Below, piece after piece: positions 743-4,938 of a stretch of DNA of 58,680 bases; positions within the stretch are counted from its first letter, which is position 1, and each line of letters starts with the position of its first letter. This DNA comes from an uncultured Bacilli bacterium (GTDB taxonomy: Bacteria; Bacillota_I; Bacilli_A; RF39; UBA660). The position numbers were made by a program, and so were the translations under genes. The notes below the pieces were generated by a model. That model did not search any database. It was not told the DNA's origin and saw only the letters and a program-made list of their open reading frames with translations. The stretch is taken from assembly GCA_934096535.1 (NCBI GenBank), contig CAKOMC010000002.1, forward strand, positions 1 to 58,680, read 5' to 3'.

Positions 743-1642
743 ATGGATAATACTGTGTTTTATGGATTTAGAGGTAACATGCTTTTTCCAAAACAAATTT
801 CAATGTATAATATTGAATTGGAAAATACCTCCGAATGTAAGAATAAAGTTTTTAATGATTTTTTTACAAAATTAGAAAAAGAAAAAAAGTTGACATCAAA
901 ATATCAAAATCGTGTTTATTATATGATATTTAAGAATAAATATGAAAATATTTTGCATTGTCAGTTAGCTAGAAGACGAAAGTTTTATAAAAGAGAATTA
1001 AAAGATAACGATATAATTGAATTGATTGATGATGATTATCCATATGTTAATATTTTTATAAAATTGGATTCACAAATGTTTTTTATAGAATCTAAGACAG
1101 CAGTCTATCAAAATTATAATACATGCAGTAATGTAATCTCAAACATCATAAACAATAACTTAAATATAGATGGAATAACGATTATTTTGGAAAATATAAG
1201 CAACGAACAAGACTTTTGGAAATATTTTGATGGTGAAACGAAGGTTTATAAATTGGAGTTTAATTTAGTTTATCCAAATATTTTTAAAGCAGCCGATGCT
1301 GCCAGTAATGTTGTAAGGGAAGCACAAGAGGCAACTGGAGCAGATAGCCTTGAAATTGTGTTTCATAACTCAAAAGGTGATTTAAATCCTAATAAGGAAA
1401 AGGAAGGAATTAATTCATTTGTTAAGTATGCTAGTGCTGGTGGCGGTAAGTGGAGTATGCTCATTAAGGGTAAAAATAATAAAAAAGTAAAGATTACCAG
1501 TAGCCAAAATAGTGTTAAGGGCAGTTTAAATATTTCTAATAAACACTTAAACGAAAATGCATTAACATCAGAACAAGTAATTTCATTAAAATACTTGTTT
1601 GATGAAATAGAAACAATCGAAAGATTTAAAAAACATGATTAA
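743..1642 (+). CDS. Hypothetical soluble protein, 299 aa (first gene of the RT-associated module)
   Basis: Long ORF preceded by GGAG at 730-733. Its stop overlaps the start of the next ORF by 8 nt. No catalytic motif recognised. There is a G/S/K-rich stretch (YASAGGGKWSMLIKGKNNKK). Confidence 0.7.
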   Translation: MDNTVFYGFRGNMLFPKQISMYNIELENTSECKNKVFNDFFTKLEKEKKLTSKYQNRVYYMIFKNKYENILHCQLARRRKFYKRELKDNDIIELIDDDYPYVNIFIKLDSQMFFIESKTAVYQNYNTCSNVISNIINNNLNIDGITIILENISNEQDFWKYFDGETKVYKLEFNLVYPNIFKAADAASNVVREAQEATGADSLEIVFHNSKGDLNPNKEKEGINSFVKYASAGGGKWSMLIKGKNNKKVKITSSQNSVKGSLNISNKHLNENALTSEQVISLKYLFDEIETIERFKKHD

Positions 1643-2150
1643 AAATTTTATAATTAAATATAAATCGATTATTATAGAAGTGCTTTGTGCGTTACTTGCA
1701 CTATTGGCAGTCATTAATAAAAATGAAGAAATATTTCTTCTTGATTCAAAAAATTTAATAAATATATTGTTAACTTTACTCGGCTTGTGTTTTACTAGCT
1801 TTGGCTTTATAGAATCATCAATTAATAGTATATTAAACAAAGGCATAGATGGTAGAAAGAGAATATTATTAAACAAAAAAATCAAAAAATTAGTAGAAGA
1901 AATTCGCTCTAATATTGTTTTTATTTTTAAAACAATTATTATATTAATTGTAATAAATACAGTTAAAAATCTAGATTTTCCTTTTTTATGTGATATTTGT
2001 GACTTAAATCTTAAAATATATACCGTACATTCGCTTAAACATTTTATTATGAATTTTATTTCGACTTTTTTCTTTAATTTATCTGTTGGATGTTTATATG
2101 ATTTGCTTGATGCAATGTTTATAATTTTAAAAGAACATTATAATTTTTAA
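1635..2150 (+). CDS. Small multi-pass membrane protein, 171 aa
   Basis: ATG at 1635 overlaps the upstream ORF's end, suggesting translational coupling. Hydrophobic segments include IIIEVLCALLALLAVI, LINILLTLLGLCFTSFGFI, IVFIFKTIIILIVINTV and FISTFFFNLSVGCLY. Confidence 0.65.
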   Translation: MIKNFIIKYKSIIIEVLCALLALLAVINKNEEIFLLDSKNLINILLTLLGLCFTSFGFIESSINSILNKGIDGRKRILLNKKIKKLVEEIRSNIVFIFKTIIILIVINTVKNLDFPFLCDICDLNLKIYTVHSLKHFIMNFISTFFFNLSVGCLYDLLDAMFIILKEHYNF

Positions 2151-2185: not shown

Positions 2186-2215
2186 TTGCGTCAATTAGAA
2201 ACATAGTGTTATAAT
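2186..2215 (+). promoter_or_regulatory. Sigma-A type promoter with an extended -10, upstream of the RT leader
   Basis: TTGCGT at 2186-2191, an 18-nt spacer containing TG at 2207-2208, then TATAAT at 2210-2215. Confidence 0.6.
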
Positions 2216-2221
2216 GTAGTT

Positions 2222-2508
2222 GCTATTGTTGTAGGACAATAGGTTAATTTTAGTAATTGTCAATATTAAATTGATAATTTCTATTATATTAATGATATAT
2301 TTGAAGATATTCGTTGATATTTCACCTCCTTCAATGTGAATTGAAATCGTGAAGATTAATCTCACTATCTTTGATATTATTATATCATTATCTTTAAAAA
2401 TATTTGTAGCAATAAAAAGTGGGCGGTAGACCAGTAATGAAGATTAAATGGTTGAGGTTCGTTGTCAAAATACACCTGTATGGGGCGCTACACCTAGGTG
2501 TGTTTTTT
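2222..2508 (+). ncRNA. Candidate structured non-coding RNA / leader co-transcribed with the reverse transcriptase
   Basis: About 290 nt lie between the promoter and the RT ribosome-binding site with no credible ORF. Hairpins: 2223-2229/2236-2242, with a mutually exclusive alternative at 2235-2240/2256-2261. Long-range pairing 2291-2298/2382-2389 and 2304-2309/2366-2371 encloses the hairpin ttcaat-gtga-attgaa at 2330-2345. The 3' element is a duplicated TACACCT (2471-2477 and 2489-2495) plus AGGTGT (2496-2501) plus T6 (2503-2508). Confidence 0.45.
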
Positions 2509-2522
2509 CATGTGGAGGATAA

Positions 2523-3863
2523 ATGAGCGAAAGAAAAATTTTTAAAAACAAATATTATAAACACATTGATAAAGTTCCTAATATTTCTGATGTTATACCA
2601 AAGATAACTAACAGAGAATATATAGAAAGACATAGCTTTTATCCGTTTATAGGTACACAAATTAAATATAAAAAATATATAAAAGAAGTTTCTGAAATAA
2701 CAAAGAAACATTGGCACCCTAAAATAAGAGAAATTAAATATGCAGCTCATTTAGATAGCTTGATTTATCAGTGGTATTCACATCTTTTAAATGAAAATTA
2801 TAATAAGTACAGTACTGATAATGGCTTTAGCCGTTGTTCTGTTGCTTATAGAACTTGCTTTTCTGGAAAGAGCAGTATAAATTTTGCCAAAGAATTTATT
2901 GATGCTATTAAAAAATGTGATGAATGCTATATAATAGTAAGTGATTTTCATCAGTTTTTTGATAAAATTGACCATAAAATTTTAAAAAGTAATATTAGTA
3001 AGGTAATGGGCTTTTCTAAAATGCCAGATGATTGGTATAAAGTGTATAAAAGCATGACTAGGTATTGCTATATTTCTAAGGAGAGCATAGAAGAAAAGTT
3101 AATAAAAGAAAAATTTGAAACAAAGAAAAGTTTAAAATCGCTAATGTGTTATTTTCAAAATATATCATGGAAAGATGCTAAAAGTTATTTTATTGAAGAA
3201 ATCAAAAGGAATATAAATAAAAATGATTATGGAATTCCGCAAGGTTCTCCTTTAAGTGGAATATTTTCAAATGTATTTATGATTGATTTTGACAAAAAAA
3301 TGAATGACTATGTAAAAATTCGTAATGGCTTTTATATGAGGTATTGTGATGATATTGCTATTGTTATTCCAACTTATGCAGTTTCTAATATTGAACAAAT
3401 ATGGGATGAAGTCATCAAATATAAATCTGAACTTGATGGACTTGAGATTAACGAACAGAAAACATGTTGTTATATTTTTAAAAATAATAAAATAGAATCA
3501 TTACATAACGAACTTGAATTATTTAAAAAATCACCTGATTGGGTATCATATTTAGGATTTACATTTGACGGCAAATATGTAAAGTTTAGAGATAAAACTA
3601 TAACTAAATATTATTATAAATTTTATCACAAAATTGATAGAATGAAAAAACATGAAATAATTAGATTAAATAGAGGAAAACATAGAAAATCTTTGATTGA
3701 TAAGCATATGATACTAAAAGAGTTAAAAATAACTGGAAAATCTAGGAGATTTTCCGATTATTTAAGTAGAGCTAAAAATATATTTTATGGAGAATTTTAT
3801 ATCCAAAATTTTAATAAAAATACAAAAAATAAGTTACTTAATAGATTTAATAAAAACAAATAA
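2523..3863 (+). CDS. Stand-alone reverse transcriptase (RNA-directed DNA polymerase), 446 aa, non-intron type
   Basis: GGAGG at 2514-2518 precedes the ATG. RT motifs in order: KIREIKYAAHLDSLIY, VAYRTCFSGKSSINFA, IIVSDFHQFFDKIDH, GIPQGSPLSGIFSN, FYMRYCDDIAIV (YxDD), GLEINEQKT, YLGFTF. There is no maturase X, endonuclease, nitrilase or primase extension. Confidence 0.9.
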   Translation: MSERKIFKNKYYKHIDKVPNISDVIPKITNREYIERHSFYPFIGTQIKYKKYIKEVSEITKKHWHPKIREIKYAAHLDSLIYQWYSHLLNENYNKYSTDNGFSRCSVAYRTCFSGKSSINFAKEFIDAIKKCDECYIIVSDFHQFFDKIDHKILKSNISKVMGFSKMPDDWYKVYKSMTRYCYISKESIEEKLIKEKFETKKSLKSLMCYFQNISWKDAKSYFIEEIKRNINKNDYGIPQGSPLSGIFSNVFMIDFDKKMNDYVKIRNGFYMRYCDDIAIVIPTYAVSNIEQIWDEVIKYKSELDGLEINEQKTCCYIFKNNKIESLHNELELFKKSPDWVSYLGFTFDGKYVKFRDKTITKYYYKFYHKIDRMKKHEIIRLNRGKHRKSLIDKHMILKELKITGKSRRFSDYLSRAKNIFYGEFYIQNFNKNTKNKLLNRFNKNK

Positions 3864-4082: not shown

Positions 4083-4123
4083 AATAACGCTTAAGTCTGA
4101 TACGACTTTGCGTTATTTTTTAT
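4083..4123. terminator. Bidirectional terminator between the RT module and the sugar transferase gene
   Basis: aataacgc (4083-4090) pairs with gcgttatt (4110-4117), with an inner aagtc/gactt pair. An A-run lies upstream and a T-run downstream. It overlaps the stop of the minus-strand gene. Confidence 0.65.
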
Positions 4124-4785
4124 TTAGCTCCAGTTTTAAATACTACAGCCTTAATAGTTCTAAATACACACTTAATATCTAGAAGAATACTACAATGTTT
4201 TACATAGTAATATTCAAGTTCTAATCTTTTTTCATAAGTAGTAGCAGATCTACCATTAGCGGCCCACCAGCCAGTAATACCTGGTTTAACAGCCTCATAA
4301 ATCTCATGGTTACCATTATGAGCATCAAGTTCACCTTCAACTAAAGGACGAGGTCCAATTAAACTTAAATCGCCTTTTAAAACATTAATAAACTGTGGTA
4401 CTTCATCTAGTGAAGTTTTTCTAAGAATTTTCCCCATTTTTGTAATTCTAGGATCATTTTCAAACTTTTGATTTTCATCCCATTCTTTTTTATACTTAGG
4501 ATCTTTTAATAATTCTTTTAATACTTCATCAGCATTAACTACCATACTTCTAAATTTATAAATATATATAAATTTACCATTTTTACCAATTCTTTTTTGT
4601 TTATAGAAGATAGTTTTTGTATCACCACTTAATAAGTAAGATATCTTTACTATAAGGGCTATAGGTAATAAGAATACGCATCCTATTAAAGAACAAATTA
4701 TATCAAATAATCTTTTAATTATAAAATATAATGTCTTTCTAATAGAAAAAGAATTAGTACTTTCTAATGTTGCTTCACCATTCAT
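4120..4785 (-). CDS. Bacterial sugar transferase (undecaprenyl-phosphate sugar-1-phosphate priming transferase, small WbaP/EpsL type)
   Basis: One N-terminal TM segment followed by KQKRIGKNGKFIYIYKFRSM...DPRITKMGKILRKTSLDEVPQFINVLKGDLSLIGPRP. I moved the start to ATG 4785, which has GGGGAG 7 nt upstream. The track ORF begins at TTG 4800. Confidence 0.9.
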   Translation of the reverse strand: MNGEATLESTNSFSIRKTLYFIIKRLFDIICSLIGCVFLLPIALIVKISYLLSGDTKTIFYKQKRIGKNGKFIYIYKFRSMVVNADEVLKELLKDPKYKKEWDENQKFENDPRITKMGKILRKTSLDEVPQFINVLKGDLSLIGPRPLVEGELDAHNGNHEIYEAVKPGITGWWAANGRSATTYEKRLELEYYYVKHCSILLDIKCVFRTIKAVVFKTGAK

Positions 4786-4938
4786 AATAACACTCCCCAA
4801 ACTACAATTAATTAACTTAAAGCAAAGTTATTGTATCATATAAATTAATATTGTGGTATAGGTTTTTTATGGAAAGTAGAATTTTTTTGACTTAATGATA
4901 TAGAAATAATATAATACCTCTTAAGAAAGGCTTTTATA

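Follow-up and report, generated by a model that had tools for sequence, protein, structure and literature searches.

A candidate DRT2 non-coding RNA gene upstream of a divergent Drt2 reverse transcriptase in an uncultured Bacilli bacterium

The DRT2 system of Klebsiella pneumoniae comprises a 280-nt non-coding RNA (ncRNA) (PMC12039810) and a 425-aa reverse transcriptase (RT) (10.1101/2024.05.08.593200; PMC12039810). A template of ~120 nt, flanked by ACA trinucleotides (ACA-1 and ACA-2), is copied by rolling-circle reverse transcription into concatemeric complementary DNA (cDNA), with the ncRNA's own 3′ end as the primer (10.1101/2024.05.08.593200; PMC12039810). Each repeat junction sets TTGACA and TATAAT at a 17-bp spacing, and the antisense transcript carries a ribosome-binding site, an ATG and a stop-free frame, the unit lengths being multiples of 3; the product, Neo, arrests growth (10.1101/2024.05.08.593200; PMC12039810). 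We examined a 58,680-nt stretch of DNA from an uncultured Bacilli bacterium (contig CAKOMC010000002.1, positions 1–58,680; hereafter the window), and in it the structured interval 2186–2526 that leads up to an RT gene on the same strand. An earlier note, made from the letters of this DNA, had described the interval as a structured leader of about 290 nt that resembled a template ncRNA or an attenuator of RT translation.

The interval very probably encodes the ncRNA of an anti-phage system of two parts, DRT2 (UG2), in which this RNA partners the Drt2 RT that follows. In silico, a promoter drives a predicted RNA of ~288 nt upstream of the Drt2 RT and on the same strand, and this RNA is made up of a 5′ hairpin that covaries, a template of 144 nt with a 4-nt direct repeat at its borders, and a covarying, pseudoknotted 3′ scaffold. 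The informative strand is the opposite one: the antisense of the template carries the predicted coding frame. Identification as DRT2 is well supported; the system belongs to a divergent Bacillota clade, and its mechanism has been known since 2024. From the sequence we infer in silico every function assigned here to the RNA and the RT. The template reading of the earlier note agrees with these results, since the RT belongs to Drt2 and the interval shows all the sequence features of a DRT2 ncRNA.

The reverse transcriptase and the RNA that precedes it

PADLOC places the RT with Drt2 (model PDLC03757, E 2.1e-118, 394 bits; PDLC02173, E 4.7e-82), with the next-best family at 1e-22 or worse and the retron RT models at ~1e-12. 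Against Drt9 the same protein reaches 67 bits and against UG17 64 bits, compared with the 394 bits on Drt2. RVT_1 is its sole Pfam domain. The active site is intact (MRYCDDIAIV), and the 80 columns that are invariant across 58 RT sequences of the clade, the window's included, take in the YCDD motif. On the NCBIfam Drt2 equivalog (NF041746) the RT scores 330 bits, under the curated cut-off of 390 bits, and relatives are therefore named "reverse transcriptase domain-containing protein" in databases. The same genome has a second, unrelated RT-domain open reading frame (ORF; 324 aa, G000:C9:23778-24011), which reaches E 7.5e-13 with the Drt2 model and thus probably belongs to another RT class.

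The ncRNA promoter pairs a perfect −10 hexamer, invariant in 11 of 11 aligned loci, with a −35 that matches the consensus at three of six positions. The weak −35 accounts for the absence of this promoter, already pointed out in the earlier note, from our consensus scan; most of the aligned loci have TTGAC ~17 nt upstream of the −10. We infer that the RNA begins ~7 nt past the −10 and ends in the U-rich tail, and conservation extends from an invariant TGC (2221–2223) to that tail. The stretch between 2216 and 2523 contains no further promoter-like site, and RT translation probably relies on transcripts that read through the 3′ hairpin.

The ncRNA alignments span 11–26 loci, and alignment from the −10 box through the RT start holds across loci with RT identity of 46–89%. 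Invariant blocks in the aligned upstream regions are the promoter −10, TGTCAA, CACCTC, GTGAAGA, TTATTATA and the 3′ hairpin. We ran the fold and the covariance analysis of upstream regions of RT homologues that had been proposed as checks, and both came out positive. A 310-nt stretch folds at −72.1 kcal/mol, compared with −59.7 ± 4.1 for its shuffles (z = −3.0; 0 of 100 as good), and covariation was found in the 5′ hairpin, the scaffold and the pseudoknot. Every motif that the earlier note had listed is present in the window where it had been placed; conservation separates them.

The 5′ hairpin SL1, which had been proposed from the window alone, shows compensatory two-sided changes at all six predicted pairs (22 loci). 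RNAalifold of the 5′ half gives only SL1 and the hairpin that holds the complement of the neo −35; indels between subclades explain why no common structure emerges for the template interior. The nine pairs of the −35-complement hairpin are retained in 22 of 22 loci with little variation, and its TGTCAA is invariant.

A covariance model of the 3′ domain recovered 26 loci, namely the close clade and, beyond it, L033 only. In the alignment of these loci 98.5% of cells are paired, against 33–43% in slid controls, and two-sided changes occur at 18 of 26 pairs. The pseudoknot, a helix absent from the search model, is 100% paired in 23 distinct sequences and has compensatory changes at four of its five pairs, in four variants (GUAGC/GCUAC, GCAGC/GCUGC, ACAGC/GCUGU and GCGGA/UCCGC). 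One of its strands is formed by loop bases 2487–2491 of the 3′ scaffold hairpin. The U-rich tail is probably the ncRNA's 3′ end and, by analogy with the Klebsiella system (PMC12039810), would be the primer end.

Template, junction promoter and neo frame

On the + strand the complements of TTGACA (2258–2263) and TATAAT (2379–2384) stand 127 nt apart, which with a 17-bp spacer gives a unit of 144 nt. A TTTA direct repeat flanks the template at exactly the geometry of that spacer. Concatenating the reverse complement of 2250–2393 in silico yields the junction TTGACAATTACTAA / AGATAATGATATAAT (the slash marks the joint), in which TTGACA and 8 nt on one side meet 9 nt and TATAAT on the other; the genomic order of the two hexamers is the wrong one. 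The concatenated unit has a GGAGGTG Shine-Dalgarno sequence and a single stop-free frame of 48 codons. Junction promoter, Shine-Dalgarno sequence and single circular stop-free frame occur together in the window and nine relatives, and the Shine-Dalgarno sequence stands in its frame context in every close locus. In the window itself the minus-strand open frame runs over 2195–2443 (82 codons); among shuffles an open run of this length is reached 76 times in 5000, and 152 of 5000 shuffled units have a frame free of stops when circularised.

These features can be read through the mechanism of the Klebsiella system. By that analogy the RT would bind the 5′ hairpin and the 3′ scaffold and extend the RNA's own 3′ end, copying the template in the direction 2393 to 2250. 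Having been made on TTTA 2249–2252, the growing end of the cDNA would re-anneal to TTTA 2393–2396 and copying would restart, giving head-to-tail 144-nt repeats. Phage-triggered synthesis of the second strand would then place TTGACA 17 bp from TATAAT at each junction, and the antisense transcript would carry GGAGGTG and the stop-free 48-codon frame through every junction. The predicted product is a hydrophobic, isoleucine-rich Neo-like protein that would arrest the infected cell.

The same rules were applied to relatives, of which the protein search gave 324; about 180 loci were obtained from scans and look-ups. A search for related loci with the single RT protein found none, and alignment-based scans succeeded. 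Of the 70 distinct template cores that were compared, 52 are of a length whose phase yields a multiple of 3 when the spacer is 17 bp. Direct repeats of at least 4 nt flank 38 of the 70 at spacer 17, compared with 2–7 at spacers 13–16 and 18–21, and 55 of 66 circularised candidate templates are stop-free. The repeat sequence is clade-specific (TTTA, AATGT, ATTTGA, ATTG or CGTATT), and its two copies always match. As a positive control we took a drt2 that PGAP had annotated on a Photobacterium plasmid; it gave a 111-nt stop-free unit by the window's rules. A second annotated drt2 (Psychrobacter, L181) lacks a −10 complement of the ATTATA type and so did not match the anchor pattern.

Four loci (L008:2213-2364, L091:908-1059, L090:915-1066 and L179:716-867; three distinct sequences) have predicted units of 152 nt, a length that 3 does not divide. 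In these units an ORF with a Shine-Dalgarno sequence and an ATG spans one junction and ends after 50–51 codons, and its stop overlaps the next ATG (TAATG or ATGA). A concatemer would therefore encode a series of junction-spanning peptides of unit length, coupled in translation, rather than an endless Neo.

A further observation concerns the minus strand at 2236–2263, where the neo −35 TTGACA is followed 16 nt on by TATTGT, inside SL1. The scan scores this site as promoter-like (10/12), and it may allow a low level of antisense transcription that leaves the ncRNA gene.

Table 1. Coordinates of the features of the putative DRT2 locus in the window.
Feature	Position	Strand	Basis
ncRNA promoter: −35 TTGCGT (2186–2191), 18-nt spacer, extended −10 TGtTATAAT (TATAAT 2210–2215)	2186–2215	+	sequence
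Predicted DRT2 ncRNA, ~288 nt, predicted ends	2222–2509	+	conservation from invariant TGC to tail
5′ handle hairpin SL1, CUAUUGU/ACAAUAG	2223–2229/2236–2242	+	covariation
Template-jump repeat copy 1, TTTA, template 5′ edge	2249–2252	+	identical to copy 2, period 144 nt
Template, 144 nt; reverse complement = predicted cDNA/neo repeat unit, 48 codons	2250–2393	−	circular stop-free frame
Hairpin AUUGUCAAU/AUUGAUAAU, holds neo −35 complement TGTCAA (2258–2263)	2255–2277	+	conservation
Neo start-codon position, ACG here, 8 nt after GGAGGTG	2312–2314	−	conserved position
Neo Shine-Dalgarno GGAGGTG (+ strand CACCTCC)	2323–2329	−	CACCTC nearly invariant, 22 loci
Motif TGAAGATTAA, template copy, core GAAGA invariant	2350–2359	+	identical to 2438–2447
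Neo −10 TATAAT (+ strand ATTATA)	2379–2384	−	invariant TTATTATA block
Template-jump repeat copy 2, TTTA, just beyond template 3′ edge	2393–2396	+	identical to copy 1
Pseudoknot, GUAGC with GCUAC	2406–2410 with 2487–2491	+	covariation
Scaffold hairpin (2420–2423/2458–2461, 2429–2433/2449–2453), loop with second TGAAGATTAA	2420–2461	+	94–99% paired, 7 two-sided pairs
Motif TGAAGATTAA, scaffold-loop copy	2438–2447	+	identical to 2350–2359
3′ scaffold hairpin (2469–2477/2496–2504, inner 2482–2484/2493–2495)	2469–2504	+	99–100% paired, 7 two-sided pairs
U-rich 3′ tail UUUUUUC (relatives UUUCUUC/U)	2503–2509	+	conserved GTTT[TC]TT[CT]
RT Shine-Dalgarno GGAGG	2514–2518	+	sequence
Drt2 reverse transcriptase, 446 aa, YCDD, no other domain	2523–3863	+	PADLOC, Pfam

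Weight of the DRT2 reading and its alternatives

Several points weigh against assigning the locus to DRT2. Transcript ends, cDNA and junctions are all predicted, and the antisense open frame is only moderately unusual in this window alone (p about 0.015–0.03). The jump repeat is TTTA, compared with the ACA reported as conserved; the RT falls under the NCBIfam equivalog cut-off; and Rfam, searched at E ≤ 10, has no family that matches 2186–2526, its only hits in the window being chance snoRNA-like matches elsewhere. The conserved neo start position is ACG. An in-frame ATG, a feature of DRT2 neo, is absent from the window though the Shine-Dalgarno sequence GGAGGTG is present. Klebsiella start-codon mutants other than GTG lost defence, and GTG substituted in part (10.1101/2024.05.08.593200).

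The start position bears on the alternative that stands closest to our reading, that of a DRT2 ncRNA with an impaired or dead allele: with the start mutated to ACG, little or no Neo would be made even if concatemeric cDNA forms. We consider this possible, though less likely than not. ATG occupies the position in 16 of 19 analysable close loci (L081–83 and 13 others), among them the relative with 89% RT identity, and the only other in-frame start candidates in the window are a GTG that has no Shine-Dalgarno sequence and a TTG inside the −35; the inactivity of the Klebsiella mutants points the same way. Set against this, the RT, promoter, scaffold, jump repeat, junction promoter, Shine-Dalgarno sequence and stop-free frame are all intact, and the ACG could be a consensus error in a metagenome-assembled genome. 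Moreover, a second lineage has lost the ATG. L084 (at 2784; likewise L085 and L086) has ATA at the start position, with an in-frame ATG 30 nt further on, and retains an intact RT, scaffold and stop-free 147-nt unit. In the RT tree L081 (ATG) is sister to the window and L084 branches off outside the two; the ATG thus appears to have been lost twice independently, and near-cognate starts may be tolerated for a very toxic product. The ACG lowers confidence in the activity of the locus and leaves its identity as it stands.

A 10-nt motif raises a different possibility within the DRT2 reading. TGAAGATTAA occurs once in the template and once in the scaffold loop. Its GTGAAGA is invariant in 11 loci despite an otherwise variable template, and sister clades have a different motif at the same scaffold position that is likewise duplicated; by itself the duplication is modestly significant (4–10 of 200 shuffles). 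The tail is complementary to GAAGA, and RNAalifold pairs the template copy with it. This pairing shows G-C/G-U variation only, with no two-sided covariation, and for that reason we treat it as hypothetical; it may parallel the 3′-end rearrangement of the Klebsiella cryo-EM structures (PMC12039810). One could picture a tail switch that has not been described, in which the tail is parked on the scaffold copy of GAAGA and moves to the template copy to prime cDNA, so that the primer site would be internal, unlike the template 3′ end used in Klebsiella. Taken together with the propositions that weak translation suffices, as the natural ACG and ATA alleles would suggest, and that an endless frame is perhaps unneeded, as the finite peptides of the 152-nt sister loci would suggest, this scenario for the Bacillota clade is speculative and we think it improbable.

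Very unlikely is the cis-regulatory leader or attenuator, an RNA that would not serve as template and would govern transcription or translation of the RT through alternative hairpins and a terminator. A strong hairpin with T6 behind it (2503–2508) does stand 5 nt before the RT Shine-Dalgarno sequence, in a region more structured than its shuffles, but the competing pairings proposed for it are not conserved. The pairing said to compete with SL1, gacaat/attgtc (2235–2240/2256–2261), is present, but relatives keep three to five of its six pairs, and its 3′ arm is the invariant −35 complement, which has a hairpin of its own. At the 3′ end, TACACCT (2471–2477 and 2489–2495) had been proposed to pair through either copy with AGGTGT (2496–2501). 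Pairing through the first copy stands, as a covarying stem; the second copy overlaps the covarying pseudoknot strand and the inner stem, and the 12-nt palindrome that it forms was not found in relatives outside the pair of window and L081. The scan calls no terminator here and the T-run is broken in most relatives. The covarying helices and the pseudoknot in which this stem-loop takes part identify the supposed terminator-like element as a scaffold hairpin. No conserved mutually exclusive helices and no Rfam match were found for the interval, and an attenuator would leave the antisense frame, the length phase, the junction promoter and the flanking repeats unexplained.

A retron-type msr/msd RNA, giving branched multicopy single-stranded DNA, is less likely still. 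The ncRNA does lie upstream of the RT and contains a long imperfect hairpin, whose shape the earlier note had compared to an msd stem, but the retron models give ~1e-12 for this RT against 2e-118 for Drt2, and no accessory effector gene is conserved with it. The central helix aatgatat/atatcatt (2291–2298/2382–2389; AATGATAT/ATATCATT) is present and partly kept, but only in the window's subclade; the adjoining aagata/tatctt (2304–2309/2366–2371) is present and not conserved, and the enclosed ttcaat-gtga-attgaa is found at 2330–2345. Retrons, moreover, have no antisense reading frame or junction promoter.

The last alternative, a 29-aa leader peptide (2437–2526) translationally coupled to the RT, can practically be dismissed: the ORF exists and its TGA overlaps the RT ATG, but its Shine-Dalgarno sequence is poor, it is missing from L081 (89% RT identity) and from the 14 other close-clade loci checked, of which a few have unrelated short ORFs, and the constraint on the region is that of RNA helices, which show compensatory changes.

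With the interval read as a DRT2 ncRNA, what was an unannotated "RT with a strange leader" becomes a complete, testable DRT2 system in a small-genome gut bacterium. Neo annotation is hard in divergent clades according to the original DRT2 authors, and the analysis supplies a rule for such clades that can be checked: anchor on the complements of TTGACA and TATAAT, then demand a 17-bp junction spacer, microhomology on the flanks, whatever its sequence, and a length that is a multiple of 3. The variants that the rule exposes, namely non-ACA repeats, ACG or ATA start positions and 152-nt units with finite ORFs, bear on what the mechanism needs.

Genomic setting and comparison with known systems

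The genes that flank the unit vary between loci and are often other defence genes, indicating that the conserved unit is the ncRNA with its RT. Upstream of the ncRNA in the window (743–2150) is an overlapping ORF pair, encoding a 299-aa protein and a 171-aa membrane protein that have no Pfam or PADLOC match. Diverged homologues (43% and 37% identity) stand in the same arrangement directly upstream of a DRT2 ncRNA in L087 (1–769), where the RT is 50% identical; none was found in the closest loci (L081, 89%; L084, 61%) or in ~170 others. We considered the pair as an effector and rejected it, given its absence at the closest DRT2 loci, though one distant locus has it; the pair may travel with DRT2 as a cassette of its own rather than being a component of it.

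On its other side the DRT2 unit lies immediately upstream of a convergent sugar-transferase gene (Bac_transf, PF02397; window 4120–4800, minus strand; L081:4758-5423; L084:4383-5051). This neighbour is shared at loci with 61–89% RT identity while the genes on the opposite side differ, which looks like insertion at a conserved hotspot on the border of the polysaccharide locus.

The window's locus resembles the Klebsiella DRT2 system (Tang et al. 2024; Wilkinson et al. 2024) in its general plan. Both have a single RT of ~430–450 aa with YCDD and, upstream on the same strand, an ncRNA of ~280–290 nt whose template lies in the centre, between a 5′ hairpin and a 3′ scaffold with a pseudoknot. In both a short direct repeat flanks the template, TTGACA-17-TATAAT arises only across the repeat junction, and a Shine-Dalgarno sequence, a unit divisible by 3 and one stop-free antisense frame specify a hydrophobic product, in the window a predicted one. 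They differ in unit length (144 nt in the window, against 111–129 nt), in the repeat (TTTA, with AATGT or ATTTGA in sister loci, in place of ACA) and in the position of the Shine-Dalgarno sequence (~40 nt downstream of the −10, against ~13 nt). Further differences of the window are the ACG at the start position, the 10-nt motif common to template and scaffold loop, the RT score under the NCBIfam Drt2 cut-off, and the host, a small-genome, low-GC gut metagenome-assembled genome (1.39 Mb, 76% complete).

More distant systems share single elements of this plan. DRT9 (poly-dA; PMC12483538) and DRT10 (tandem repeats; PMC12632851) likewise use an adjacent structured ncRNA as scaffold and template for repetitive DNA, but their RTs are protein-primed, their products are homopolymers or short repeats, and DRT10 depends on a SLATT effector, whereas the window's RT has no conserved partner gene. 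Retron msr/msd RNAs are also structured, lie 5′ of the RT and are reverse-transcribed for phage defence; retrons belong to another RT clade, have no rolling-circle concatemer, coding capacity or junction promoter, and need an effector protein. The junction promoters of circularised insertion sequence (IS) elements, an analogy drawn in both DRT2 papers (10.1101/2024.05.08.593200; PMC12039810), similarly bring a −35 and a −10 to functional spacing only once two ends are joined. In IS elements the joining is a transposase-mediated circularisation of DNA, whereas here it is predicted to come about by template jumping of the RT on RNA.

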